DNA of 64,000 bases from an uncultured Chloroflexia bacterium. Lineage in GTDB: Bacteria > Chloroflexota > Anaerolineae > Anaerolineales > UBA4823. The position numbers were made by a program, and so were the translations under genes. Below are positions 13,530 to 50,988 of the stretch, piece after piece (the stretch's first letter is position 1; each line of letters opens with the position of its first letter). The stretch is from contig CAVPYB010000005.1 of assembly GCA_963709875.1 (NCBI GenBank), positions 56,721 through 120,720 on the forward strand, written 5' to 3'. The notes beneath the pieces are model-generated. The model was not told the origin of the DNA. It did not search any database and saw nothing but the letters and a program-made list of their open reading frames with translations.

Positions 13530-13769
13530 TCAATCTCGTAATTTTGCAGGTTGTTGCTGGAGCTCTTCATCCTCACGCTCCGAGCAAGCCAGCCCTTCTA
13601 AATAAGCAATCAATGTGACCAGGTTTGGAAAGCCGTGCAGCTCACCCGTCTGCACCTCTTCCAAAGAGGCGCGCCAGTCGCTCCCCTCTTCGACCTGTAC
13701 CCGCCACATGCGCAGCAGGTAGGAGCGGTAGTCATCGCGGAAAGATTTCATGGTTTGCTCGTTTTGCAT
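13530..13769 (-). CDS. Small conserved hypothetical protein ('YxSYLLRxWR' family)
   Basis: YRSYLLRMWR..WRASLE..TGELHGF..L..L; paralog at 48303..48512. Confidence 0.75.
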   Translation of the reverse strand: MQNEQTMKSFRDDYRSYLLRMWRVQVEEGSDWRASLEEVQTGELHGFPNLVTLIAYLEGLACSEREDEELQQQPAKLRD

Positions 13770-13812
13770 GAGTGGTTAATGATTTGGCAGAGCGCATGCT
13801 CTGATATATTCC

Positions 13813-34600: not shown

Positions 34601-35864
34601 TCACAGATAGCGCAGCCACACATAAACGCTGGCGATGATCAGCGACACGAACGTTGTCACCAGACCATAGCGCAGGAAGGTACCAAAGCCGATCTGGTAT
34701 CCGCTGCGGGTGGCCAGGTTGGCGACGACCACATTGGCAGATGCCCCGACCAGGGTGGCATTGCCGCCCAGGCAGGCGCCCAATGCCAGCGACCACCACA
34801 GTGGCATGATGGGCATGGCACTCCCGAGATTTTCAACGATCGGTATCATCGTGGCAGTATAGGGGATGTTATCGATAATGCCGGAAGCAATGGAGGACAT
34901 CCAGATCAGCAGCATGGATGTGTACGCCAGGTTACCACCCGTGAACTCCAGGAGAGCCAGGCTGACTGTATCGATGATCCCCACAGTCACCACCGCCTCA
35001 ACCATGATGAACAATCCGATAAAGAAGAACAGCGTTGTCCACTCCACATCCCGTAGCGCATGGTGGACATCGCTGCGAGCCCACAGCAGCAGCAGCGTCG
35101 CGCCGGTCAGGGCGATCGTGGCCGGCTCGATATGCAATGCACCGTGGAACAGAAAGCCGAAGATCATCATAAAGGTGATCACTGCGCCTTTAGCAAGCAG
35201 CTTTTTATCGGTGATCAATGCTGTCGTATCCAGGGCGTTGATATCCAGCGAAACAGCCCCGTTTATGCTCAGATTCGCGCCGGAATAAGAACCAGCTCAG
35301 GCCGACGAATACCACCAGGATGGCAATTGCTGGCGGCGCCATATTCAATGCAAATGTAGAAAATGGGATATCAGCCGCACTGCCGATAAGGATGTTCGGT
35401 GGGTCGCCGATGAGTGTGGCAGACCCACCGATATTCGAGGCCAGGATCTCTGCGATGAGGAATGGCACCGGGCTGACTTTTAAGCTGGCGGCAGTAAATA
35501 GAGTTACCGGGGCTACCAGGATCACGATGGTCACGTTATCCAGCAGCGCAGACGCGACTGCTGTCACCAGGGATAAGATCACCAGGATGCGGAAGGGCTG
35601 GCCGCGCCCCAGCTGGACCGCTTTAACCGCGATCCATTGGAATATGCCGGTCTCTCGCAGCAGGTTGGCGATAATCATCATACCTGCCAGCAAGAAGATC
35701 ACGTTCAAGTCGATGGAATGGAAGGCGGTCTCCTGGTCGATTGCACCGATCAGGATCATCATGATCCCCCCTAACAAGGCTATGACAGTACGGTCGATAC
35801 GTTCTGAGACGATGACTGCATATGTCGCCAGGAAAATTCCTCCGACAATCCAGACCAGGCTCAT
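34601..35864 (-). CDS. ArsB/NhaD (P-protein-like) family transporter, frameshift near 35275
   Basis: SALLDNVT, ASNIGGSATLIGDPPN, VEWTTLFFF, IIDNIPY, LGGNATLVGASAN. Confidence 0.9.
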
Positions 35865-36760
35865 TCTTCGCCCTCTTCCGGAAAGGCATCCTGGTCGAAC
35901 TCCAGGCATACCGCCATTAATTCCAGCAGATTGACATAACCGATGATGTGATACTGGTCATCGACAACCGGCAGCCCCGGGACGCGATTTTCGTGCATGC
36001 GTTCGAAGGCTTCTTTGATCCGATCATCCATTTTTACCCAGACCGGGTCCTGCATGGAGTCTGCCGCAGTTCGCTTACGGCTCTCATCGGCATAGCGCAT
36101 AACGTCCTCGAGAGAGGTGATCTCGCTGAGGAATTCTTCCGGGTCGATATGGAAGAAGACGTCATTGGCAAGCTCGTTGAGGTTGAGCAGACCGAGCAGC
36201 CGTCCATTCTTGTCCACGACACAGGCGACGTGTGTTGTGGGGTGCAAGAACATCTCTTTCGCCACGTCCTGCAGGGATGTATCAGGGCTCACGATGGTTG
36301 GTGCTAGCGTGAGGCAATCCAGCACTTCAGACACCTTGGTATTGCGGTGTAGAGACCAGCTTGATTGCAGGATCGGGGCTGGCTCGACCACCTTCTGCTT
36401 GGGTCTGGTTTTGTATATGCCGCGGGTCAGGTGGATGGGCAGCACCATGATTATGCCGCTGTTTGGTCGGTCGAGCCCATCCATGACCCGTTCTGCCTCG
36501 GCGACTGCCTGCTCCATCAGGCTCTCCTCCTCGATTGCCGCCATCAGCGTCCGGCGGGTGAGCTCCTCAGTCTCGAACAGCCGGTCCAAGAAATCCAGAC
36601 CGACCTGGCTGAGCCAGGAGGTCGTCCGGTAGCCGCCGGTGCTCTCCAGGATCGTCACACCTGGCACACCAATCTCCCGCCAGACCTTCAAGATCTGTGG
36701 TAGGCGGTTAACGTCGTCCAATATGAGCATGACTAAATATGACATAAGCTTGATCTCCAT
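35861..36760 (-). CDS. PII-like domain fused to CBS domain pair
   Basis: N-terminal W..IGVPGVTILESTG...LDRPNSGI; C-terminal VVD..GRLLG and LPVVD..IIG. Confidence 0.8.
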   Translation of the reverse strand: MEIKLMSYLVMLILDDVNRLPQILKVWREIGVPGVTILESTGGYRTTSWLSQVGLDFLDRLFETEELTRRTLMAAIEEESLMEQAVAEAERVMDGLDRPNSGIIMVLPIHLTRGIYKTRPKQKVVEPAPILQSSWSLHRNTKVSEVLDCLTLAPTIVSPDTSLQDVAKEMFLHPTTHVACVVDKNGRLLGLLNLNELANDVFFHIDPEEFLSEITSLEDVMRYADESRKRTAADSMQDPVWVKMDDRIKEAFERMHENRVPGLPVVDDQYHIIGYVNLLELMAVCLEFDQDAFPEEGEE

Positions 36761-37938: not shown

Positions 37939-37974
37939 AAGCCCCTCTCTTGATCTATATCAGGAGAGGGGCTT
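37939..37974. terminator. Hairpin terminator after the multiheme gene
   Basis: aagcccctctcttgat..atcaggagaggggctt. Confidence 0.7.
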
Positions 37975-37978
37975 GGGT

Positions 37979-40379
37979 TCACCGGACGGTGGGCTGATGA
38001 GGGCGGCGCCATGTGGGGGGCGGCTCGTCGTCTTTCCAGCTCGAATTGTAGCTCGTCAAGATCAGGCGCATCGTCTGGTCAAACACACGTGTGATGACCT
38101 GCAGATAGCTCTCCCCAGGTGGTGTCCCGGAGCCGGCCAGCGGTGCCGGGGTGAGCCCGGACAGGCAGATCGTGCTCACGGGCAGCGGCAGGGGGGTCAG
38201 ACCTGGCCGCGGCATGATCCCGGGCTGGGGGGTCGGGGTGGGTATGAGTTTCGGGTCCCGCGGCTGCAAGGCGGGTGTCTGCGTGGGGTAGGCGGTCAGG
38301 GTGGTGACAGGGTCCGGCTGCAGGGTGCCGACGACCGGCGTCAGCGCTGCCGTGGGATCGACGTCCGATGGCGGGAGCGTTGGTGTGCTGGCAAGCCCCA
38401 GGGTGGGCGTGGGCTGTGGCGTCGGTGTGGCAGTCTGCTGCGGTGTGGCAGTTGGCGCGGGGGTGGCGGACTGACCGGGCTTCGTCCTCGGGGTAGGCGT
38501 GTTGGTATAGGTCGGCGATACCGACAGCGTTGCGGTAGGTGTGAGGATGATCCGCCAGGTATCGGTGGTGTGGCATTTCGAGCACTGGCCGCGCGGGTGC
38601 CCTTGCGGGTGTGCGTGGCAGGCGTTGCAGGTGGTGTAGCCGGTGTGGTTGAAAGTGTAGTCCGACCAATCTGTGGTGGTGTGGCAGTCGCTGCAGGCTC
38701 CAGGCCAGTGCCCGCTGGGGGCGGTATGGCAGGTGCTGCATTGGGTATAACCGGAATGGTCGAATTCGACGGCATACCACTCAACTGTATTATGGCACTT
38801 GGAGCACTGCCCGCCGTAGTGCCCGGCGGGTGGCGCATGGCATGCAAAGCAGTCGCTGGTGCTGGAGTGGTAGCGGGAGGCATTCTCCCAACTGTTCACG
38901 TCGTGACAGGCGTAGCAGTCGTCGCTGTAGTGGCTGTCCGGCTCGTCTGCGGCATGGCAGTCGATGCAGTACAGGTAGCCAAGGTGGTCGAAGCTGGTTG
39001 CACCCCAATCCTCGAAGTTGTGGCAGGTGGAACAGGTCCCCGGGTAGTGTCCACCAGGAGGATTGTGGCAGGTGGCGCACTCCCTGACCTCCGAATGGTT
39101 GTAAGAGATCAGCCGCCAGCCACGGGTGGTGTGGCAGGTAGAACAGCTGCCGCTGTAATGGTTATCCGGGCTGGAGTGGCATCCCTGGCAGTCACCGGCA
39201 TTGCTGTGGTAGAAATCATCCGGCACCCAAGTGCGGGTGTTGTGGCACTGGCTGCAGTCCCCGCTGTAGTGCCCGGAGGGTTTGGAGTGGCAGGTGGTGC
39301 AGGATATTGGCAATACATGGTTGTAGCGGTGTACTTCCCATGCAACGGTGGTGTGGCAGAGCGAGCACTGGCCCGGCTGGCTGCCCAGGATATGACCGTC
39401 CGGCACTTGCGTGCTGTGGCAGAGCAGGCAGTCTTCCAGGTGCTCGTGGTTGACGATGGCATCCGGCCAGTAGTCGTAGTTCGAGTGGCAGTCCGTGCAG
39501 CGCCCCGGATAGTGGTTCTCAGGCAGCTGGTCCAGGTGGCAGGATTCGCATTCCAGGACGTATTCATGCCCGAAGTAGGCCTCGCTCCAATCGGTGGTGC
39601 TGGTATGGCATAGCTGGCAGTCGCCGGGGTAGTGGTCGGGGTCGTGGATGACCTCCACGAAGCTCAGCATCTCATACAGCGACAGGAAGATCGGGTCCGG
39701 CTCGATGCGCACCAGGGGGATATCCCCGGCGTGGCATGAGATGCACTCATAAATCCCCTTATGGTCGAAGGAGACCGGCTTCCAGCTTCCGGAGTCGTGG
39801 CATTCTTCACAGCGATCGCCGAAGTGGTCTGGATATAAGTCGTTGGCCAGAGCGGGATCCGGCTGCTCGACCCGCTTGTAAATCTCGACGAAAGCGCGGT
39901 CGAGCAGCTCATCGGCGGTGAGCGGGATGCCGTGGCAGGATTCACAGGTAGAACTGGTGCCCGTGTAGCGCCCATCGCCGTGGCAGTTCAGGCATTGCGA
40001 ATCGTCGTGACTTCCGTCCAGCGGGAAGTCTTGATGGGAGACCGGTTTATCCAGGAAGGGGACCACCTCGGGTGAGACGTTGGGCGGTGACTCGCCCAAC
40101 GGGCTGGCCGGAGTGCCGGTGGGGATAGCCGGTCCGCCATCCCCACTGCCTGACTGGAGCAGGTCGCCGGAGGTGCTGACCAGACCTGCGAGGCGCAGTG
40201 TGGATGAGCGCGATCTGAGCAGACGCCGGACTGCCGCTGGAGGCTGCCAGCATCTGCGGGCTGTCACTGGAGGCATTCAGACCGTCGATGATATTACACA
40301 GGCGTTCTGTCCAGCCGGCTGCCAGCAGGGCAGTGACCAGCAGGAACAGGATCAACCAGATGATAAGCGGGTGTTTCAT
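37979..40379 (-). CDS. Large multiheme c-type cytochrome (23 CxxCH) with N-terminal anchor and Pro/Thr-rich tail; frameshift near 40200
   Basis: 23 CxxCH counted in ORF 37979..40276; N-terminal TM/signal in ORF 40047..40379. Confidence 0.9.
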
Positions 40380-40385
40380 GGCAGC

Positions 40386-41269
40386 TTACCTCCTCACTTT
40401 GCTGACCGGAAAGGCGGGGATCAACCCACTCGCCAGGCTGTCCTCTAACGGATTGCCGCTGGTTCCGATCAGACCTTCGACCATCAGCCGCTCAGCCTCA
40501 CCAGACTGCCCAGTGGGGTGGCAATCTGCGCAGGCCTGGTAATCGAGGATGTCCTGCGCCAGGTGGACTTCTTCCATCGGCTGCGGCTGGTGGTCGTGGC
40601 ATTCATAACAGGTATGGGTGTAGTAGTTCTCGACATGGCAGGTCTGGCAATCCACCTTACCCTGACCGCCGTGATCTAGATAGAAAGTATGCCGGGTGAG
40701 ATAAGCCGGAGTCCAGGCGACGGTGGTGTGGCAGCGCTCGCAGCTCAGCCCGAAGGTGCCCAGGTGGATGGGCGGATCTTCGTGGCAGGCGACGCAGTCG
40801 TGTGGGGCGACTTCCAGGTATGCCTCACCCATCTCGTAGGCGGTCGGCACGAGCTCGAGCGGGCCGGCTTGCTCGGCGATCTGTGCTGCCAGGTCCCAGT
40901 CGGCGTAGCGGATGAAATCGACCAATTCGGAGATCTGGTAATCGTTGAGCATGCCGCCTTCGTCTATGTGCCAGGCAGCCATCTCCGAGCCGTGGGCGGC
41001 GCGGGCGATGGTGCGGAAGAGCAGGTCGGGGTCGACTTCGGTCAGAGCGCGAGGTTGTCCAGACCGGGCATTGCGCCTACTCCCTGACCGTCGTCCCCGT
41101 GGCACAGACGGCAGTGATTGGTGTAGATTTGTGCGCCTTCCACAACCGCCTGCTGGCGGTATACCCCCTGGACGGACTGCATGCGTGCGTCCTCTTGCAG
41201 GGCATATACCGGCAGGGCAATGATGAAAACGACCAGGGCGATCAGTGTAATGAAGGTGTAGCGGTTCAT
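40386..41269 (-). CDS. Membrane-anchored hexaheme cytochrome c (class I domain plus 5-heme domain); frameshift near 41043
   Basis: GAQIY..HCRLCHG..G.G and M.AW...GG.L..QI; then CVACH, CERCH, CQTCH, CYECH, CADCH. Confidence 0.85.
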
Positions 41270-41290
41270 GATGATCTGCTCGCTTCCCGG

Positions 41291-41819
41291 CTAACCGTAG
41301 ACCAGTTGGTCTGGGGAGTAGCTCTCCCGGCGCTGGAGCTGGCTGGTATCCACCTTCACCACCGCCGAGTCGATGCGTACCGGGAAGATATCCAGGGCAC
41401 GCGGTACAGGTTTGCTCTCGAAATCGCCGTAAACATCGAAGCTGGAGGCATGGCACGGGCACAGAGAATCGCTCGTTCGCACCGTCCCATTTGACGCTGC
41501 AGCCCAGATGCGGGCAGCGGCGGTAGATGGCCAGGAAGCCGCCTCCCTGCTCGCGGACCAGGTAGAAGTTCTCTTCAGGAAACTCGGTCACCGTACCGGG
41601 CGGGAAATTCTCGACCGGACCGGCTTTGATCGTACCGCCGAACTCTCCCTCCAGGCTGCGCGAACGCAGGAACATGAATCCGGCTGCACCGGTCTCCACG
41701 ACAGCCAAAGCTCCCAACGCTCCCAGGCCAATGCGCAGGAAATTGCGCCGGGTGAGCGGTGAAGGCTGTGCCTCCTCGACCGGTTGAGCCCTGTTTCCAG
41801 ATGATCTTTTCTTATTCAT
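41291..41819 (-). CDS. Rieske 2Fe-2S protein with Tat signal; frameshift near 41463
   Basis: TRRNFL, CPHLGC, CPCHASSFD, PRALD. Confidence 0.9.
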
Positions 41820-41869
41820 TGCAGTCTCTCCCAGAATTTCAGCAACATTATCCAGTCTCTCGTCAATGC

Positions 41870-43225
41870 TCAAAACGGCAGGATCAAAGCCATATTCTCA
41901 CCGCGTAGGAAGATACCGATCAGGGTCAGCACAACCAGGCTGGCTGCCAGGAAGCTGACCAGGCCGACCATCGCTTCGCTGTGACCCGCTTCTCGACCAG
42001 TAACGTGCAGGACCAGGCGGATCAGGGCGTAGACCAGCGCCAGAGCTGCCAGTGTGAGCGCCAATGGCAGCACGATATCGTTCACAGCCGGCGCCAGAGC
42101 GGGCAGCCAGGTCTCGGGGTCGAGCCAGTATTCATCGGCAGCCACTGCCAGTGGTACGGCAACCAACGCGAGCAGGCTGCCCATCAGCGCAGCCCAGCGC
42201 CCTCCAGTTGAGCGAAAATAGACGCCGATATCCTCTGATTTGCGGTCGATATACGGGACAGCCAGGATTAATCCTGTCAGCAGCCCAACCAGCAGGATCG
42301 CTGCCAGCGGGTGCATGTGCAGCAGCAGCTCCTGCAAGCCCATAAAGTACCAGGCAGCTTTAGCCGGGTTGGGCAACTCGAAGGAGTCTGCCAGATCGCC
42401 CAGTGGCGCAGGTCGCAGCATCGTCCAGATCAGGACCGCGATCAGCACCACCAATGCCACGGCGATCTCCCTCTCCACCAGGTGCGGCAGGGTGGTCAGA
42501 CGTTCCTGGCGCTCCCCGGGCACCCCGATTGGCTGGGAGATGCCGCCGTTCTTGCGCACCTTCCAGAAATGGTAAGCGCTCATGCCCACCAGCAGCAAGG
42601 GGATGAAGACCACGTGCAGGGCGTAGAAGTTGCTCAATGCCCCCTGCCCGACGGTATAGCCGCCCAGCAGCAGGCTGCGCAAGCCGATCCCGGCAGCCGG
42701 GATGTACGACAGCAGGCTGGTGCTGACCGTGATCGCCCAGTAGGCCAGCTGGTCCCAGGGCAGCAGGTAGCCGGTGAAGTTGGCTCCTAACACGAGCAGC
42801 AGCAGGGCAACACCGACCATCCAGTTCATTGTGCGACCAGCCTTATAGCCGCCGGTGAAGAAAACCCGCAGCAGGTGCAGGAATACGGATACCACAAGCA
42901 GGTTGGCAGACCAGTGGTGCACGCCGCGCACCAGCGAGCCGAAGGCCACCTGCAACTCGATCTGCTGGATGCTGATATAGGCGTAGTCAACACGCGCGTC
43001 GTAGCGGAAGATCAGCAGTAGACCGGTGATCCCCAGCAGGAGCCCCAGCACCGCCGATATGCCGCCCAGCCCCCAGGTATAGGTGAAGCGCAGCGCCCTG
43101 GCGGGCACATTGACCGGGTGCAGGTGCAGCACCAGGTTGTTAGCGACCAGCTGCAGGTTGCTCCGGTCGCCCTTGTCCGTATAGATCAAGCGTTGCTTCC
43201 AGTTTGTTCGTGCTCTCTCAGCCAT
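41870..43225 (-). CDS. Cytochrome b (fused b6 plus subunit IV type) of a Rieske/cytb complex
   Basis: RGVHHW, FLHLLRVF, FTGYLLPWDQ.AYWA, FYALH, YHFW; PAKAAWYF. Confidence 0.93.
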   Translation of the reverse strand: MAERARTNWKQRLIYTDKGDRSNLQLVANNLVLHLHPVNVPARALRFTYTWGLGGISAVLGLLLGITGLLLIFRYDARVDYAYISIQQIELQVAFGSLVRGVHHWSANLLVVSVFLHLLRVFFTGGYKAGRTMNWMVGVALLLLVLGANFTGYLLPWDQLAYWAITVSTSLLSYIPAAGIGLRSLLLGGYTVGQGALSNFYALHVVFIPLLLVGMSAYHFWKVRKNGGISQPIGVPGERQERLTTLPHLVEREIAVALVVLIAVLIWTMLRPAPLGDLADSFELPNPAKAAWYFMGLQELLLHMHPLAAILLVGLLTGLILAVPYIDRKSEDIGVYFRSTGGRWAALMGSLLALVAVPLAVAADEYWLDPETWLPALAPAVNDIVLPLALTLAALALVYALIRLVLHVTGREAGHSEAMVGLVSFLAASLVVLTLIGIFLRGENMALILPF

Positions 43226-43250
43226 TGGACTCTCCCCAGAATCATTTCTT

Positions 43251-44744
43251 TCAGTTCTCTAAATGGATGAATGGTAAGTACAGCGGATATACAGGGGGCT
43301 GCTCCACGCCTTCCAGTCCGTGGTAGACAAATACTCGCCCCATGATGGTCTTTTCATCCCTGCGGTACAGCGGTGCACCGACCAGCAGGTCGGCGAAGCC
43401 GTCCTGGTTCACGTCACCGGCATTTGCAGCCGAGAAGCCGAACCAGGAATCGTTCTTATTGCCCTCCACCAGCCAATGCGGGGATGTGTCCAAACCCGCC
43501 GGGCTGCCTTTGTAGATAAAAGCTGCACCTTCGTAGGGCTGGTCCTGCGTGTAGTGATGCGCGCCGACGATCACCTCGTCACAGCCGTCGCCGTCCAGGT
43601 CGGCAGCAGAGGCGACCGAGACGCCGAATCCCGAGCCTGCCTGCCCGCTGTAGCCGATCCAGCGATTTGAAGCGGACAACCCCCCAGAAGAGCCAAAATA
43701 TACGATGGCAGCGCCCTCATCACCTAGACCGGACGGGTTGTCGTATCCCGGTGCACCGATGACGATATCGGCGTAGCCGTCGTTGTTGATGTCACCGGCG
43801 GTCGAGACCGCCTCGCCCAACCGGGCGTAGCTTTGCTCTCCGTTGACTACCAGTGCCGGTAGAGCAGACAGACCGCTCGCAGAGCCAAGGAAGACCAACG
43901 CCTGGCCTTCCTCGACCTGTACGGTCTCGTGCAGCGGAGCACCGATGACCACGTCATCATAGCCATCGCCGTTCACATCCCTGGCGCGGCTGACCGCGCT
44001 GCCGAGCAGGGCTTCACCCTGATCGCCTTCGATAGTCCACGCCGGCACAGTCCCCAGCCCGGCTGGAGAGCCGAGATAGAGGAAAACTGCCCCTTCGGAG
44101 GCCTGCCCGTTGCTGTAGTACGGAGCACCGGCGAGCAGGTCATCGCAGCCATCGCCGTTCACGTCCCCGGCGCTGCTGACCGAAGCGCCAAGCTGGGCGC
44201 TTTTCTGGTCGCTCTGGACGCTCCAATCCGGCAGCAAGGATAGACCGGCTGGCGAGCCGTAGTAGACGTATACAGCGCCTTCTTCGGGATGGTCCTGGTT
44301 AAAGCGCGGCGCACCGATCACAACGTCGGCGTAGCCATCGCAGTTCACATCCCCGGCAGTGGAGACGGAATGCCCAAAGCGCGAGCCTTTGAGCCCGCCG
44401 CCGGCGGACCAAACCGGGTCCTCCGACAGCCCTTGCGGGTTGCCTTTAAACAGGAATGCCACCCCTTCACGGTAGACATCGAGCGAATACTGTGAGGAAC
44501 CGATGATGACATCCTGGTAGCCATCGCCATCCACGTCCCCGGCGCTGCTGACCGAGTAGCCATATTCGGCGCTCTGCTGCACGCCATCGGTGATCCAGTC
44601 CGGGTAGAGGGTCATGATATTAGAAACGAATGATTGCGGGTTTACCGGTGGATGAGCGAGTGCAGGCGTAGCGAAGCTGCCGGTCAGCCCGACCGGGAGC
44701 AGCAGCATGAGGATGAGTGCGGATAGCGTCAGTGTGCGAGACAT
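43251..44744 (-). CDS. Secreted FG-GAP/integrin-alpha repeat protein
   Basis: Signal peptide; 7 repeats (F/L)G.SV..AGDVNGDG..D...GAP; C-terminal LYLPFI. Confidence 0.92.
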   Translation of the reverse strand: MSRTLTLSALILMLLLPVGLTGSFATPALAHPPVNPQSFVSNIMTLYPDWITDGVQQSAEYGYSVSSAGDVDGDGYQDVIIGSSQYSLDVYREGVAFLFKGNPQGLSEDPVWSAGGGLKGSRFGHSVSTAGDVNCDGYADVVIGAPRFNQDHPEEGAVYVYYGSPAGLSLLPDWSVQSDQKSAQLGASVSSAGDVNGDGCDDLLAGAPYYSNGQASEGAVFLYLGSPAGLGTVPAWTIEGDQGEALLGSAVSRARDVNGDGYDDVVIGAPLHETVQVEEGQALVFLGSASGLSALPALVVNGEQSYARLGEAVSTAGDINNDGYADIVIGAPGYDNPSGLGDEGAAIVYFGSSGGLSASNRWIGYSGQAGSGFGVSVASAADLDGDGCDEVIVGAHHYTQDQPYEGAAFIYKGSPAGLDTSPHWLVEGNKNDSWFGFSAANAGDVNQDGFADLLVGAPLYRRDEKTIMGRVFVYHGLEGVEQPPVYPLYLPFIHLEN

Positions 44745-44782
44745 ATTTCTTTCCTAGACCCTCAGGGTCTGGGTAGGTATTT

Positions 44783-44917
44783 GGGTGCCCGCTCGCCTGG
44801 AGAGAGACTGAGCCTGCTGGACCAGGCTGTTTCGAGATCGGGGAGAAGATCTGCGAGCGGGCACCCCCGGTTAGTTGCCTGAGGACTGGCAGTCCATCAA
44901 AGAGGACTGCCAGTCCT
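44783..44917. repeat. Two 14-bp inverted repeats in the intergenic region
   Basis: gggtgcccgctcgc/gcgagcgggcaccc (44783-44866); aggactggcagtcc/ggactgccagtcct (44882-44917). Confidence 0.75.
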
Positions 44918-44928
44918 GGTAGGTACTA

Positions 44929-47900
44929 TTAACGTACGATGGTTGGCAGGTGGATCTGGTACAGGCTCTCCAGCACAACCACCTTGGTGACCTGGTCTAC
45001 AGACCAGTTGCCTTCATTGTCCTTGACCTTGAAGGTGATGGTATGCGTGCCAAGGCTGAGGCTGGTGACCGGGATGCGGATTACCTTCTCGCCGCCCAGC
45101 ACGCCTTGCAGGTCGGAGTTCCACTGGATCTCGACGATGCCGTCGCCGATATGGTCGAGGTCCCTGCCGGTGCCTGCCAGCACCAGGTCGCCGCCGCGGC
45201 TGTGGGCAACCACGCCGTCGCTGACATACAAAATGCCGGCGATGGGCATGTAGTCCTGGGTGGAGCCATCCGGGAGATACAGCATGCGGCGGAAGATGAT
45301 GTCGCTGTCGTAGATCAGCTCGTGACCGTCCTCGTCGATCTCCTCTTTCCACTGGTTCCAGACCGCGTACATGAAGGTGCCGCCGGGGTTGGCGAGCATG
45401 CTGGCTTCGCCGGACAGCTCGTCGGATTTGTTCTCCAGCCACGGCCAGCGGTCGATCAGGTCATCATCGTTTGTGGTGGTGTAATCCATCAGCTCATACT
45501 CGTCGCCGAAGATCGTCGCCCGGCTGTAGTACAGATCGAGCGGTACGGCTTCGCCCTCGGCTACGGTGGTGTTGTCGCCGGTCTCATAGACCATGAAGAA
45601 CTTATCCGGGGCGCGCACTGCATCATCCGTGTACGGCAGATCGGTAAAGGAAATGCCGTTGTCCGTCAGCCAGTCTGTGCTGATGGTGCTGTACAGCTTA
45701 AGACCGCCGGTAGGTGAATAGCGCGGGTCGAGGATTGTGATCTTGTTGCCGATGAGCTGCGAGACGTTGCGCCCCTGCTCGAAGGCGCCGGCCGCGTAGG
45801 TGAAATCGGTGCCCACGCAGTCGCCGGACGCAGTGCTAACGCAGTAGTTCTCGGTGGTGGTGACGCCGGCACCGCCTAACGAGCCAGGTGTGGTGGTCCA
45901 GGTCAGACCGCCGTCGAAGGAGCGGCGCACGTACAGGTTGTAGTGGTCGTTGCCGACCGAGTTGGCCTTCCAGTTAGGCGACCAGGCGTACATGATCATA
46001 ACGATGTCGCCGTCCAGGAAGCCGCGGTGCCCCTTGGCAACGTCGAAAGGATTCTCCCAGGGCTGGTCGTCCAGGTCGCTGTCACCTTCGCAGCCCGCTA
46101 TCGCCCCGCTGCCATCGCACTGCCGCCATTCGGTCACCTTCGGGAAGCTGGTCGTCCCGCCGAGCCAGGGGAAGATCGCCGCGCAGGGATCGTTGCCGCT
46201 GGCGCCGTCGCAGGTGACGATGGTGCTTCCGGAGATGCTGATGGCCGGGTCGAGGCACACGCCCTGCAGGTAGTTGGGGTTCAAGCCGTCGTCGTAAACC
46301 CAGTTCCCGCACTCCATATTCTCGAAGGCATAGGGGTTATCAACCGCAGGATCGAAGCCGACCGGTACGAGCACGCGGCGCAGCATGATGTCCGCCGGAC
46401 CACCCTGGTTGATGATGCCCTGCTTGTAGATCAGCATGGCAGACAGACCGCTGGTCGAATTGTAGGCTGCATCTACCGAGTTAGTGGTCAGTGCAAAGCG
46501 GCGTGAGATCTCGGTCAGATAGTACTCATAACCACGCGTATCGACTTCGACCGGGAAGAAATCGTCGGTGGTCATGTCGATTGCGGGCTGGTTCAGCATT
46601 CCGCCCTGGGCGACGAAGTCGTGATCGAACATGTCGAAGCTGTGATACCAGACGTCCTTGCCGATATCGATCGGCTCGAGAGTGGTCGGGTCGACGATAT
46701 CACCGAGGGCTTTTGTCTCTTCGTAGGCCATCACCACCCAGGCGCTCTTTTCCACATTCCCGTCACCATCCTCATCCACAGCACCCACCGGGGTGTAGGG
46801 CTTGAGGTTCAGGCGCACGCGCGTAGAAGCCACACGGCCGTTCAGCAGGCGGTTATCATCCGTTTCGCACAGGATCAGTGATGTGCCGCCTGGATTGGTC
46901 CAGGATACCTGGGTCGTGCAGAAGTCCGAAGTCGCCGGTAGGCGCATCGGGCAGGGCGAGCGGATCGAGAGAAGCCAGGTCGTCGAAATCGACGTAGCAG
47001 TACGGGTCGCTGCCGGTTGCCTTGCACATATTATTATCCGTCAGGCGTACCGGCATGGCCATCGGTACGTAGGACTTGGGCATGGTCGTGCCCAGGTAGT
47101 CTTCCATAGCAACTGCACCGACAACGTTATCGACTTCGAATACCTCGTCGAAGTCAGCGTAGCTGATATAGGAATACCAGATATCAGTCTTCTGGTTGGC
47201 GATGGCGCCGCTCCAGCCCTCGCCCGGTCCTAACCCCTGACCGGGGCGCAGACCCTCGGGGTCTTCCTGCCAGGTGAGGATGCAGCCGGCGTCCTTGGCG
47301 CAGTCCACCGCGGGCAGGTTGGCGTCCCGCCGCCCGGAGGTCAGCCGCTCGGGCTTGGCCCACATCACGTAGCTGGATTCAACCGCGCCTGTGGAGGGGT
47401 CATCGCCTGCCAGCAGCTTGCCGCGGGTAGTCCAGATGCAGGAGAAGGGGATCTCGCCGATCTCGGGGAATCCCAGCTCGGTATAGTCCACCGAGCGCTG
47501 GGTTCCAGCGATCCCAAACAAGTCGTACAGGTACATCTCATCCACCCCGTAGGTGACCTTCAGGTCATCCAGGTATGCAGCCTCTGCAGCCGGATCGACG
47601 GTGTAGAGCGGAGTGCCGCCATCGCAGTACTTGCTTGCCCAGGCGATGAAGATACGGTCGCCGGCAACCTGGTGGACGACGTTATGCACGTCGCCCGGGT
47701 AGGGGTGGCCGTTCTGCAGGGTAAACGAGGTCAGGTCAGCAGAACGCGATAGGTTGGTAGTCTTCCAGCTGGTGCCGTCATCCAGCGAGACGCCGACATA
47801 GGCATCAAACTCCCCGAAGCTGATGCCACCCATGATGGAATTCCCAAGTGGCTCTTCATGAGGCATGTCGTCGATATACACCGAGATGAGCGGCTTGGCG

Positions 47901-48160
47901 AAATCGCGCGCCGGGTAGTCAATGGCAGCGCTCCCATCAGCCAGCAGATAATTATCCACCGGGCCGACGGTGCCATCCGACGCCTGGGCGGGGACGTAGA
48001 AGTCCATCATGTAGATGGCAGCCTTCTCCGTCTCGCCTTCCGGCGTCTTGGAAATATTGCGGCGGAACAGCAGTCCATCCTCAGCCAGCACCGTAGTAGT
48101 GATCAAGCCGAGGACGGCGATAACCGCCAGGATTATGATGAATTTCTTTTTTGCATCCAT
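44929..48160 (-). CDS. Large secreted acidic protein, choice-of-anchor O-like, with PKD-like C-terminal domain; frameshift near 46945
   Basis: Signal peptide; SLDDG.SW..TNLSRSA, WQEDPEGLRPG.G.GPGEGWSGA..KTDIWYS, AKGHRGFLDGD, RRSFDGG.TW; GTHTITFKVKDN.GNWS; ends IHLPTIVR. Family name from recall. Confidence 0.72.
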
Positions 48161-48302
48161 TGAACTTCCTCCACGATCTGATAATCAAGCCTTATATATG
48201 GTCAGGTTTGGAATTGAAGCAGGCAGCCCGGTTGGGTCTCCTCATAAGCCCTCCTTGTCCAGGTAAGACAATTTGCGAAATTGTCCTACGTAGGTTATAT
48301 CT

Positions 48303-48512
48303 TCAGCGATCAACAGATAATTCATCCTCAAGCCATGCGCGTCCTGGCTCCTCAGAGCATTCTTCCAGGAAGCTGCACAGCTGTGGCAAGCTCGAAAAAT
48401 ATTGGCACTGACCGGTTGAAATGTTTTGCAGCGAAGCCCGCCATTCCCCATCAATGGTTTCTCTCCACAGGCGTAAAAGGTAGGATTGGTACAGCCAGAG
48501 ATTTGATCTCAT
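48303..48512 (-). CDS. Small conserved hypothetical protein ('YxSYLLRLWR' family)
   Basis: YQSYLLRLWR..EWRASLQ..TG...F.SL..L..FL; paralog of 13530..13769. Confidence 0.72.
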   Translation of the reverse strand: MRSNLWLYQSYLLRLWRETIDGEWRASLQNISTGQCQYFSSLPQLCSFLEECSEEPGRAWLEDELSVDR

Positions 48513-48561
48513 TGTCAGGTTTCCATGCCCTGGAGACGTACATACAAGTACGGCTGAATTG

Positions 48562-48615
48562 ATTATCCTCATGCCGCGTGAATGCTGTGTTATAAAGGCG
48601 TGAAATTAGCGTGAA
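48562..48615 (-). promoter_or_regulatory. SARP/BTAD-type activator site plus -10 box of the cytochrome unit
   Basis: GCGTGAA at 48576, 48598, 48609 (22- and 11-bp spacing); proximal copy 8 nt from GATAAT on the minus strand. Confidence 0.65.
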
Positions 48616-48705
48616 AATAATCACGGATTCTGTTGTACAATATATGTGATACAGTTTGCGCTTTGGCACATTGATAGAGCGGCAGCGAGGTATTTTGGCG
48701 GGGAA

Positions 48706-50988
48706 ATGGACCGACTCTCGATTTATTTATTGGGACCTTTTGACGTACAACTCGGGGATAAGAGCCTTGCGCGGGCATTCCGCACGCGCAAAGAGCGCGC
48801 CCTGCTGGCATATCTTGCTGTCGAGCAGCGCCAGCAGCACCGTCGTGAGGCTGTGGCAGAGCTGCTCTGGCCGGAGAGACCGGAGGGCTACGCCCGCACA
48901 AACCTGCGCCAGGCGCTCCTCGGGTTGCGCAGGGCGATCGGTGAGGGATTTATCCGTGTCTCGGATGAAATGATCCAGGTCGAGCCTTCGCAAACGATCT
49001 GGCTGGATGCGGATGCCTTCCGGACCAGCTACCGGCAGACCCTCAGCCACGCCCATCGCAGTGTGGACAGCTGCCCGGAGTGTGCCAACAGCCTTCAGGC
49101 GGCTGTCGAGTTCTACCGCGGGGATTTCATGGCGGATGTCTACCTGGGGGATGCGCAGGGATTCCAGGAATGGTGCGTGTTCAACCGCGAGCAGCATTTC
49201 CGCTATCTGCTGTCTTCCCTGCAGAGTCTGAGCGCTTTCCACCAGGGAAAGCGTGATTACGAGCTTGCGCACCAGTATGCCTGGCGGTATGTCAACCTGG
49301 CTCCACTGGAGGAGGCCGCCCACCGGCAGCTGATGACCGTCCTGGCGCTGAGCGGCAGGCGCACCGCGGCCCTGGAGCAGTTCCATGCCTGCAGCAGCCT
49401 GCTATCGAAGGAGCTGGCGGTTGAGACTTCGGCAGAGACGCAGGCATTGTACGAAAAGATCCGCGATGGGAAGCCGGTCATCGAGGCGCCAGGCAGCGGA
49501 AGTCTGAGGATCCCGAACAACCTGCCCGCCGGGCTGACATCTATTTTTGGCAGGGATGATGAGCTGGATGCGCTCGACGACTGTCTCGTCAAGCCTGCCT
49601 GCCGGCTGATCACGCTGGTGGGCATGCCCGGCGCCGGCAAGACACGCCTGGCTTTGCAGACCGCCCGGCAGAGGTTGGATAGTTTCCCGGATGGGGTCTG
49701 GTACACTGCCCCGGGCAGCCGCCATCCCGAAGGTACCCTGGCGGATAAGCTGCTCGCCAGCCAGGGCATCACCGTCCAGCTCCAGCTTTCACCCAAGGAA
49801 CAGCTGCTCACCAGGCTGCGTTCGATGCGCTGCCTGCTGGTGCTGGATAATTTCGAGCTGCACCTGGATGAGACCGGGCTGCTGATCGAGCTGCTGCAGC
49901 ACGCGCCGCGGGTAAAGATTCTGCTGACCACCCAGGAAAGGCTCAACTACCAGGCTGCCTGTGTCTTCCAGATCGCAGGATTGCCGTGCGGGGAGGCGCC
50001 ACCCACGGGCGCAGCTCATGAGACCCCCTCGGTAAACCTTTTTCTGGCGCGGGCGCAGCACAGCCGCAGCGGATTTACGCTGAGCGATGAAAACGCCGGC
50101 TATATCGCGGACATTTGCAGGAAAGTGGAGGGCCTGCCGCTGGCGATCGAGCTGGCGGCGGCAGCGCTGCGGGATCACAGGTGTGAGGAGATCGCCGCCA
50201 GCCTGGACGAGGGGCTGGGTATGCTGAGCACCTCCATGCTGGATGTACCTGCCGTGCATAGAAGCATGCGCAGCGCGTTCGAACGCCCGTGGGGCCGGCT
50301 GAGCCGGGGGCAGCAGGACCTGATCGTCCGCCTGGCCAGTTGTACCGGCGAGTTTACTCCCTCGGAAAGCGGCGCCAGCCAGGCAGAGCTGGATGAGCTG
50401 CTGGACCGCAGTCTGCTCGAGACGCGTGCTCCAGGGCGTTTCCGCATGCACCCGCTTGTGCGGCTGTTCCTGCTGGAAAAAACAGCCTCGAGCAATGCTC
50501 TGTTGACGCCCGGTCCGGCAGAGCTTCCGGGCAGGCATATGTTCTGGGACCGGCTGGAGCACATGCTCGCACGGGCTAGGCGTTACGCGCAGACCGCGGC
50601 GGTCATCCTGCTCACCACTGCAGATGTGGGCGGGCAAGCCGACATGGCTGGCAGCCAGGACCAGAAGGTGCTGCGGCAGTTATTACGCTGCCTGCGCAAG
50701 AGCGATACTGCTGTCCTGCTGGATCGCGGCCTATATGGGATTATCCTGGAGGATCTCTCAAGGGCGGAGGACAGCCTGCTGGTGGGCGATAAGTTCACCA
50801 AGGCGCTGAGTCCATCGCCTGGCTCTGACGATCCTATGATGCCTCGGTTCCATATGGGGATCAGCATCTACCCGCGCGATGGGCAGGAAGCTCGGATGCT
50901 GGTCGAGCGCGCAGAATCCGCCATGCAGCAGGCGGCAGAGACGGGCGAGTGCTGCAGGATGTATGGGGGAATAGAGAGTAGAGAGTAG
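48706..50988 (+). CDS. SARP-family regulator: wHTH-BTAD, NB-ARC-like NTPase, degenerate GGDEF
   Basis: RALLAYLA, LLWP..ARTNLRQAL, YRGDF, PLEEAAHRQLM; GMPGAGKT, LLVLDNFE, GLPLAIELAA; MGISIYPRDG..L...AESAM. Confidence 0.9.
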   Translation: MDRLSIYLLGPFDVQLGDKSLARAFRTRKERALLAYLAVEQRQQHRREAVAELLWPERPEGYARTNLRQALLGLRRAIGEGFIRVSDEMIQVEPSQTIWLDADAFRTSYRQTLSHAHRSVDSCPECANSLQAAVEFYRGDFMADVYLGDAQGFQEWCVFNREQHFRYLLSSLQSLSAFHQGKRDYELAHQYAWRYVNLAPLEEAAHRQLMTVLALSGRRTAALEQFHACSSLLSKELAVETSAETQALYEKIRDGKPVIEAPGSGSLRIPNNLPAGLTSIFGRDDELDALDDCLVKPACRLITLVGMPGAGKTRLALQTARQRLDSFPDGVWYTAPGSRHPEGTLADKLLASQGITVQLQLSPKEQLLTRLRSMRCLLVLDNFELHLDETGLLIELLQHAPRVKILLTTQERLNYQAACVFQIAGLPCGEAPPTGAAHETPSVNLFLARAQHSRSGFTLSDENAGYIADICRKVEGLPLAIELAAAALRDHRCEEIAASLDEGLGMLSTSMLDVPAVHRSMRSAFERPWGRLSRGQQDLIVRLASCTGEFTPSESGASQAELDELLDRSLLETRAPGRFRMHPLVRLFLLEKTASSNALLTPGPAELPGRHMFWDRLEHMLARARRYAQTAAVILLTTADVGGQADMAGSQDQKVLRQLLRCLRKSDTAVLLDRGLYGIILEDLSRAEDSLLVGDKFTKALSPSPGSDDPMMPRFHMGISIYPRDGQEARMLVERAESAMQQAAETGECCRMYGGIESRE

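Follow-up and report, generated by a model that had tools for sequence, protein, structure and literature searches.

A 64,000-nucleotide window of a sediment genome of uncultured Chloroflexota (Anaerolineae, Anaerolineales) (the whole stretch of DNA analysed; G000:C5:56721-120720) carries, at positions 37979-48572, an operon in which a predicted quinol-oxidizing complex is joined to two multihaem cytochromes and two propeller proteins. On sequence grounds, the locus encodes a Rieske/cytochrome b quinol oxidoreductase, and our judgement tips towards a haem chain that is fed by menaquinol and leads out of the cell, in which the propellers would be partners at the wall or surface. This reading draws on the probable integrity of the locus, the conservation of its parts across related genomes, and the presence of haem maturation and export functions. 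The source genome (G000) is a 5.2-Mb assembly of 14 contigs that is 88% complete. The features of the locus, in the order of transcription with the divergent regulator first, are as follows.

48646-50988, plus strand: divergent regulator, 780 amino acids (aa), with BTAD, NB-ARC/AAA and GGDEF domains
48303-48572, minus strand: small conserved protein, open reading frame of 89 aa
44929-48160, minus strand: choice-of-anchor O protein (choO), about 1076 aa after discounting an insertion near 46929
43251-44744, minus strand: FG-GAP protein, 497 aa, seven repeats, signal-like N terminus
41870-43225, minus strand: cytochrome b, 451 aa, fused b6-like N-terminal and subunit-IV-like C-terminal halves
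41291-41819, minus strand: Rieske 2Fe-2S subunit, about 175 aa, twin-arginine signal TRRNFL
40386-41269, minus strand: hexahaem cytochrome c, 293 aa, six CxxCH motifs
37979-40379, minus strand: 23-haem cytochrome, about 799 aa, 23 CxxCH motifs
37939-37974, minus strand: GC-rich hairpin, terminator-like, directly after the last stop codon

Organization of the operon

In agreement with the preliminary description of this window, which was made from sequence without database searches, the seven genes from the small protein to the 23-haem cytochrome are co-oriented on the minus strand in the order given there. They encode the 29 CxxCH motifs it had counted: 23 between 39994 and 38584, one at 41113 and five between 40796 and 40532. 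Spacers of 6-50 nucleotides (nt) separate the five genes from the FG-GAP protein to the 23-haem cytochrome, and longer spacers of 142 and 184 nt flank choO. Family scans found no gene for a terminal oxidase, porin, molybdoenzyme or NrfA/HAO-type protein in the unit, as had also been stated, or directly adjoining it. The unit had been described as closed by a terminator. A hairpin of 11-12 pairs does lie at 37974-37939 after the stop codon, with a folding energy of -35.3 kcal/mol (z = -3.25; 0 of 200 shuffles folded as well), but it lacks an adjacent U-run and the consensus scan was silent there. Over the sequence scanned, promoter-like sites (2 versus 3.7 expected) and terminator-like sites (8 versus 6.0) did not rise above chance.

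Four frameshifts resemble assembly insertions

As assembled, four of the seven genes change frame once each: choO near 46929, the Rieske gene near 41464, the hexahaem gene near 41043 and the 23-haem gene near 40217. It is this count that would favour a decaying pseudogene cluster in the source strain. As an independent check, Logan contigs of four public runs were aligned to the locus, with contig cover falling within 38268-48635. Runs X1-X3 are sediment RNA libraries from three studies and X4 is a run that is on record as probably DNA. The shares of sampled words were 0.28, 0.22 and 0.06 for the three RNA libraries (X3 and X4 each 0.06), and X3 and X4 were used only where a contig matched.

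The extra bases were contradicted at three of the four sites. At 40217, one base is absent from an X1 contig and from an X4 contig, the latter otherwise identical over 179 nt; at 41043, two bases are absent from one X1 contig; and at 46929, one base is absent from one X1 contig that is about 95% identical to the locus (20 other differences in 386 nt). Correction restored the frames exactly. Removing the base at 40217 by script opened a frame of 799 aa with 23 CxxCH motifs and 554/791 identity to an intact orthologue. Removal of the two bases at 41043 gave 293 aa with six CxxCH motifs and 239/293 identity to the orthologue in G001, a genome of the same genus, and removal at 46929 gave 1076 aa with no CxxCH and 728/1057 identity to the orthologue in G011. 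For the Rieske gene, a product of 175 aa resulted when one base at 41464-41466 was removed; the CPCH box is then in frame, and the product is identical to G001 at 135/175 positions. In G001 itself the genes are intact, encoding an 817-aa multihaem, a 293-aa hexahaem, a 175-aa Rieske protein and a 452-aa cytochrome b, and its FG-GAP fragment is open.

Unrelated genes of G000 are split in the same manner. The CitMHS transporter gene (window 34601-35909, minus strand) lies in two overlapping frames that match residues 1-187 and 197-336 of the Pfam profile; CcmF is divided into 509 and 177 aa at 7582-9717 of L020 (G000:C1:350000-369999); and a Cytochrom_C_asm match, taken as CcmC, is broken into two frames at about 15382-15655 of L020. 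Indel errors thus appear to be spread across the G000 assembly. On account of the contigs, the exact frame rescue, the intact genes of G001 and the splits in unrelated genes, the four frameshifts seem more likely to be insertions made in assembly than signs of decay. The locus otherwise has no premature stops, deletions or raised divergence, and its orthologues are intact. We therefore regard a pseudogene cluster as exceedingly improbable, and the locus as probably intact.

The operon is also probably expressed. Contigs identical to the locus occur in the sediment RNA runs X1-X3 (for example, 39819-39998 in the 23-haem gene, and 44782-45601), and an identical RNA-library contig at 44717-44960 spans the whole choO/FG-GAP spacer.

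A conserved module of propellers and multihaem cytochromes

The synteny that the preliminary description had asked to be looked for was recovered, with the full cluster present in G011 (L033, an Anaerolineales metagenome-assembled genome (MAG)), L034 (HGW-Chloroflexi-10), L036, L037 (Candidatus Leptovillus affinis), G536, G464, G445, G447 and G503:C123. The recurring order is choO, FG-GAP, cytochrome b, Rieske, hexahaem, a 12-haem cytochrome where present, and a large multihaem cytochrome. FG-GAP orthologues hold the same position in most loci; the cluster in L035, an Anaerolineae MAG, is without FG-GAP, and in L036 and L037 the 12-haem gene precedes cytochrome b. A few genes beyond the operon's downstream end in two loci (L036 12553-16285 and L037 17843-20801) are genes for a 485-aa octahaem protein and a 6-7-haem protein with a membrane-like C-terminal end.

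We surveyed 137 genomes of the window's GTDB family with the choO profile. Matches above the cut-off were found in 15 of these, at 21 loci, one of them at a contig edge. In all 20 loci with downstream sequence, cytochrome genes follow choO on the same strand. Nine of the 20 carry cytochrome b, accompanied by the Rieske and hexahaem genes in seven (G000, G011, G536, G464, G445, G447 and G503:C123); the contigs of the other two, G502:C19 and G502:C56, break off within cytochrome b, leaving just its start. A further ten have choO, in some cases FG-GAP, then the 12-haem and large multihaem genes, and lack bc genes (four in tandem in G493, the others in G016, G545, G446, G015, G448:C121 and G503:C472). 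The locus in G503:C723 ends inside the 12-haem gene. From gene content and order, choO, the FG-GAP protein, the 12-haem protein and a 23-29-haem cytochrome are predicted to constitute a conserved surface module. The dedicated bc complex proposed earlier is present in the unit studied here, but it is an optional front end, which the conserved core lacks in 10/20 family loci.

The cassette seems to amplify as a unit. Four tandem cassettes lie within 40 kb in G493:C11:46000-85999 (L042, L043), where some choO copies are frameshifted, and the loci in G502:C56 and G503:C123 begin with the end of a preceding large multihaem gene and hence belong to tandem arrays too.

In a sample of 401 genomes from the phylum, choO exceeded the cut-off only in G000 and G187, and in G187 it stands without cytochromes within 40 kb. 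That case invites the alternative that choO and the FG-GAP protein are no more than common surface or sheath proteins, which share a location or regulation with the cytochromes but no physical interaction, as do the long spacers around choO compared with those between the redox genes and a C-terminal tag, described below, that both propellers share with about 30 unrelated large proteins. Set against this are the retention of choO directly upstream of cytochromes in every one of the 20 family loci and the tandem duplication of the whole four-gene cassette as a unit, four times over in G493. We consider mere co-location improbable.

A Rieske/cytochrome b complex with a composite hexahaem subunit

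Cytochrome b matched PF00033 (E = 2.9e-42) and PF13631 (E = 3.7e-38), and its best solved relatives are cytochrome b6 chains (E = 3e-41). Four histidines (VHHW...FLHLL and ALHVV...AYHFW), which we take to be the haem ligands, two pairs in helices B and D, are kept in all ten aligned sequences. Its best NCBIfam matches were ExtP and ExtQ of the Geobacter ext cluster, both below their cut-offs (ExtP NF040969, 256.9 bits against 290; ExtQ NF040970, 56.4 bits against 150). In the alignment of ten, the Qo motif reads NPAKAAWYF in the multihaem-linked clade and PAKAPWYF in the clade of plain bc operons; the canonical Qo-site motif, P-E-W-Y, was not matched. Both Rieske boxes, CPHLGC and CPCH, are encoded, split over two frames in the window and sharing a single frame in G001, whose 175-aa orthologue matched PF00355 (E = 1.7e-12, 47.6 bits).

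The hexahaem protein consists of an N-terminal membrane helix, a class-I monohaem domain and a pentahaem c7/c3-like module. As assembled, its motifs lie in two frames, one CxxCH in the first and five in the second; in the G001 orthologue, Pfam assigned residues 41-120 to Cytochrome_CBB3/Cytochrom_C and residues 168-255 to c7/CIII. The pentahaem part aligns at 48-52% identity with the C-terminal end of the 12-haem protein. From this alignment, the hexahaem is predicted to be a class-I haem domain fused to the pentahaem end of the 12-haem protein.

Plain bc operons of relatives (G012, G009, G002:C165, G004 and the Chloroflexales loci L038-L040) encode cytochrome b, Rieske and a 399-456-aa subunit with three CxxCH motifs, the last read in L012 (G012) and L038. 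The simplest reading of these arrangements would be that a bc operon was inserted into the propeller/multihaem module and that its cytochrome c acquired the connecting end of the 12-haem protein. Beyond the bc genes of one plain operon (L012, G012:C52, 12718-16555) come a gene resembling molybdopterin-type oxidoreductases (780 aa, with a cluster of Cys near the N terminus), a ferredoxin-like gene and a gene for a membrane protein, as called from the printed starts of the sequences alone.

The 23-haem cytochrome and its relatives

In the 23-haem cytochrome, an N-terminal membrane helix is followed by about 475 aa of haem domain, composed of dihaem repeats 37 residues long, and then by about 200 aa of tail rich in Pro/Thr/Ser. 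Its CxxCH spacing alternates 22/15, and the haem domain has 28 non-motif His and one Met. The same parts recur among the large multihaem orthologues: a membrane helix (7/7), a spacer, the haem domain and a Pro/Thr/Ser-rich tail of 60-220 residues. Haem counts among related loci are 23, 24 or 29, and the repeat consensus is C-x2-C-H-x2-P-x2-H-Y-x-G-x-C-x2-C-H-x-T-x2-W-x4-F-x-H. With 27-35 non-motif His for 23-29 haems, few Met, and HY and F-x-H conserved in each repeat, these proteins have enough non-motif His for every haem, which fits bis-His ligation throughout.

Pfam matches of the 23-haem protein are to c7/c3. In a search of solved structures for likeness to filament-forming cytochromes (OmcS/OmcE/OmcZ type), it matched small tetrahaem cytochromes and 3ouq (E = 0.0014), a GSU1996 fragment; a stronger off-target match to 8zvk AaBgIC (E = 4.3e-07) fell on the Pro/Thr tail, and DnaJ was matched too. 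Among the 8000 public proteins sharing most words with each query, 1141 relatives of the large multihaem were found at E ≤ 1e-10 and 1030 relatives of choO at E ≤ 1e-5, the named ones in both cases mostly from Chloroflexota. The 12-haem protein of G011 matched c3_2, c7, CIII, MtrC/F and Paired_CXXCH in Pfam; at E ≤ 0.01 it had no match to PF03264 (Cytochrom_NNT), the NapC/NirT/CymA family.

Propeller proteins and a shared C-terminal tag

The choO protein matched NF040591 in two pieces (317.4 bits over profile positions 3-250 and 371.2 bits over 255-670; cut-off 125), which belong to a single gene, divided by the frameshift at 46929. It has an N-terminal signal/anchor helix, one very large β-propeller, a C-terminal PKD/FN3-like domain and the ending ...HLPTIVR. 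An AlphaFold2 (AF2) model of a 1050-aa orthologue (predicted local distance difference test score (pLDDT) 81.5; predicted template-modelling score (pTM) 0.82) places the propeller at about 28-940, with long insertions, and the PKD/FN3-like domain at 942-1040. Pfam detected an Asp-box weakly. Foldseek returned generic propellers only, the best being sialidases (E ~5e-7, TM 0.1-0.3), and VIA-align gave Z ~14 to WD40/BamB-type propellers and Z ~11 for the PKD/FN3-like end; we drew no function from either. By sequence, choO matched no solved structure at E ≤ 1.

The most conserved stretch of choO, W-Q-E-D-P-x-G-x2-P-G-x3-G-P-G-x-G-W-S-G-A, is invariant across 49 sequences (P0001 residues 279-301), and loop residues 291-300 were modelled at pLDDT below 50. 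This glycine-rich loop is a candidate functional or contact site. The FG-GAP protein, which ends ...YLPFIHLEN, matched PF01839 (E = 1.1e-62) over seven stretches and is expected to be a seven-bladed propeller.

The loop bears on another alternative: an enzyme-like or storage complex, made up of the propellers and cytochromes and placed in the wall space, that would act on a soluble substrate or as a haem capacitor with no wiring to solids. The propellers would then be structural parts of a catalytic haem complex, a role that the β subunit has in hydrazine synthase. The invariant loop could be a functional site of such a complex. Propeller-plus-haem enzyme complexes are also reported, for example hydrazine synthase and its homologues, some with a neighbouring FG-GAP gene. 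Yet no penta-coordinate or catalytic haem signature was identified, non-motif His being numerous enough for every haem; no NrfA, HAO or cd1-type family was matched; and the fold matches are generic propellers. We consider this alternative unlikely.

Both propellers end in a short tag, at about 44932-44960 in choO and about 43254-43290 in the FG-GAP gene, as do most of their orthologues. The pattern [YHF][LIV]P[LIVMTFA][LIVM] occurs within the last 14 residues of 32 of 5500 G000 stop-to-stop frames of at least 200 aa, versus 5 when an internal window served as control. Carriers are mostly large proteins that typically end ...YLPLIxR or ...FLPLVIR, and no membrane helix follows the tag. It looks like a very short C-terminal sorting or anchoring signal.

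Haem maturation, export and cell envelope

The G000 genome contains a Ccm system I cluster at C1:357-366 kb, so the cytochrome c maturation that the preliminary description had asked after is accounted for. Pfam matches there include CcmE, CcmF, CcmH, CcmA (ABC ATPase) and a thioredoxin-like protein that is probably CcmG; the split Cytochrom_C_asm match is taken to be CcmC, and ResB was not found in G000. Export is likewise indicated, both multihaem proteins starting with a hydrophobic N-terminal helix. The choO and FG-GAP proteins also begin with a hydrophobic helix, and the Rieske protein has a twin-arginine signal. The preliminary description had named four findings that would speak against it (no synteny, real frameshifts, no maturation system and no export), and we encountered none of the four.

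A probably monoderm cell had been suggested. In G000 we found no match to Omp85 (PF01103), LpxC (PF03331) or MtrB/PioB (PF11854), the PF11854 search being of uncertain sensitivity as it matched in only 1 of 14 control genomes, below the cut-off; this is consistent with a monoderm envelope but, from an 88% complete genome, is not proof of one. Across G000, 17 open frames carry four or more CxxCH motifs. A second multihaem cluster at G000:C14:178965-186694 has frames with 18, 26, 8 and 10 CxxCH motifs, two of which contain the same pentahaem module as the hexahaem protein.

Comparison with known electron conduits

Anaerolineae are reported to be where multihaem proteins of 20 or more haems are mainly found, and a part in extracellular electron transfer has been proposed for these proteins (Arbour et al. 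2020, PMC7399161; West-Roberts et al. 2021, bioRxiv 10.1101/2021.08.23.457424). Anaerolineales MAGs from bioanode reactors are reported to have large multihaem proteins of variable haem number and no porin-cytochrome genes, probably for want of a Gram-negative envelope (PMC7399161; 10.1101/2021.08.23.457424). The locus resembles these proteins as there described, with at least 20 CxxCH motifs, a transmembrane helix, a haem number that varies between close relatives and no porin-cytochrome genes; it differs in the Rieske/cytochrome b link, the choO and FG-GAP partners and the four-gene module. The porin-free extracellular electron transfer put forward in the preliminary description therefore fits the locus, but for large Anaerolineae multihaem proteins the idea is already in print. 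In word searches of open-access text, some aimed directly at them, we found no description of the operon architecture, the bc linkage, the choO/FG-GAP partners or the four-gene module, although the supplements of two Chloroflexi papers might list the genes.

Other bacteria without an outer membrane, Ardenticatena maritima, Thermincola potens and Carboxydothermus ferrireducens, relay electrons through the wall by multihaem proteins, the concept proposed for this locus. The chains of Thermincola and Carboxydothermus use several smaller cytochromes. Ardenticatena maritima, a cultured member of the Chloroflexota, is reported to show anodic and cathodic currents and to have a surface seven-haem protein; the accounts of it that we consulted describe no dedicated bc complex or propeller partners of the kind seen in this locus.

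NHL propellers adjoin surface cytochromes in Desulfovibrio ferrophilus (DFE_0451/0463), Geobacter metallireducens (Gmet_0556) and Candidatus Tenderia (UetH/I), where their proposed role is stabilization or attachment of the cytochrome complexes. As in those clusters, secreted propellers are here encoded beside multihaem proteins that are predicted to be extracellular; here, however, they are Asp-box-bearing choO and FG-GAP propellers, and the NHL hosts are diderms.

The Geobacter Cbc/ExtOPQ and anammox Rieske/cytochrome b complexes have multihaem c subunits (hexa- or octahaem in anammox). The locus shares with them the b6-like and subunit-IV-like halves, the twin-arginine-exported Rieske protein and a c subunit that is multihaem and not monohaem. 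In contrast, in this locus the halves are fused, the c subunit is a class-I domain plus a pentahaem module, the complex is set in a propeller/multihaem module, and the genome is one in which no outer-membrane machinery was found. As with MtrCAB/Pcc, the haem chain would carry respiratory electrons across the envelope; unlike those conduits, it has no barrel partner that we found, would be anchored by its own helix and would be entered from a bc complex rather than CymA, ImcH or CbcL.

Proposed electron route

On the favoured reading, menaquinol would be oxidized at the Qo site and one electron would pass via the Rieske cluster to the class-I haem, then along the five c7-like haems into the 23-haem chain. 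Starting at its membrane anchor, that chain would cross the wall and, if linear, span roughly 20 nm, a length that we assume from the haem spacings of solved multihaem proteins. The final acceptor would lie outside the cell, for example Fe(III) or Mn(IV) minerals, humics, an electrode or a partner cell. The propellers may be wall or surface proteins that hold or cap the cytochromes, by analogy with the NHL propellers proposed in Desulfovibrio ferrophilus and Geobacter.

The main rival uses the same hardware inwards or in both directions: the haem chain would draw on Fe(II), a reduced mineral, a cathode or a partner cell and feed the bc complex, from which electrons would go in reverse to the quinone pool or onwards to terminal reductases or oxidases encoded elsewhere. 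Bis-His multihaem chains are reversible, nothing in the locus fixes a direction, and Ardenticatena maritima is reported to show both anodic and cathodic currents. Conversely, the unit encodes neither a Cyc2-like protein nor another known iron oxidase, an energized membrane is required for a bc complex to run in reverse, and no partner reductase is encoded nearby. We judge inward or bidirectional flow rather unlikely, by either route.

Several points weigh against an outward haem chain with propeller partners. Function, the direction of electron flow and surface location are matters that we infer, and the role given to the propellers in the haem chain is a guess; their fold matches show no recognizable cofactor or active site. 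The two choO paralogues of G187 have no CxxCH frame of at least 150 aa within 40 kb, the sole clear exception, so choO is not an obligate cytochrome partner. The AF2 model of the 23-haem protein (G001 orthologue, 42-row alignment) was unusable (pLDDT 51.6, pTM 0.24), and the linear-wire geometry and length are therefore assumed. Since the Qo motif is AAWY and not PEWY, the quinol chemistry may be unusual. As to integrity, a single contig, of depth 2.4, supports the deletion at 41043; the contig at 46929, with its 20 other differences, must come from a relative; and the Rieske site at 41464 lies outside contig cover and is corrected without read support. The RNA-library contigs are only suggestive, because DNA can contaminate such libraries, and they show neither strand nor level.

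A broader proposal is more tentative than the haem chain itself. In it, the module would be the monoderm counterpart of porin-cytochrome conduits, the bc complex having been captured in several lineages by insertion of its operon and fusion of that operon's cytochrome c with the pentahaem docking end of the 12-haem protein; the propellers would be integral structural subunits that carry the haem chain through the wall, sorted by an undescribed eight-residue tag, (Y/F/H)-(L/I/V)-P-x-(L/I/V)-x-x.

Flanking genes and the small upstream protein

The operon is flanked by the divergent BTAD/NB-ARC/GGDEF regulator, sensor kinases, a cyclase, a CBS protein and the CitMHS transporter, and Pfam identified no oxidase, reductase or porin among the flanking genes. 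The regulator at 48646-50988 matched BTAD (E = 4.4e-20), GGDEF (E = 3.8e-9) and NB-ARC (E = 1.2e-6), and its homologues in L034 and L033 are likewise divergent from the operon; the match in L037 is weak.

The first gene had been called a small leader protein. Its product (48303-48572) has no signal sequence and belongs to a family of Chloroflexota proteins of about 70 aa, and so is not a leader peptide. It had no Pfam or NCBIfam match, and its nearest ESM Atlas clusters are Chloroflexota hypothetical proteins of about 70 aa (score 0.91-0.92). As the homology begins near residue 20, the product would be about 69 aa. Homologues lie just upstream of choO in L034 and L033. G000 has two paralogues (window ~13578-13805 and G000:C1:250582-250788), one of them about 1 kb from a paralogue of the BTAD regulator; the window paralogue, at ~13.6 kb, has no BTAD neighbour. 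The pairing of small protein and BTAD regulator, seen at this locus, in L034 and L033 and at one of the two G000 paralogues, is a weak observation. The small protein may be a regulatory partner.

Implications

Sediments, aquifers, anode biofilms and activated sludge all have Anaerolineae among their most abundant bacteria, and the very large multihaem proteins of these bacteria have repeatedly been noted without a pathway model. The locus gives a complete and testable chain from the quinone pool to the 23-haem protein, and it delineates a four-gene module that recurs; choO by itself has over 1000 public relatives. Candidatus Leptovillus affinis, from activated sludge, carries the full operon and may be easier to obtain than other carriers. 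The tag common to about 30 large secreted proteins may point to an unrecognized sorting route in Chloroflexota. The haem chain remains the locus's central proposal. Should the propellers turn out to be structural partners of that chain, they would represent a new way to build a conduit without an outer membrane. The operon is thus a testable candidate for how bacteria that lack an outer membrane pass electrons to or from their surroundings.

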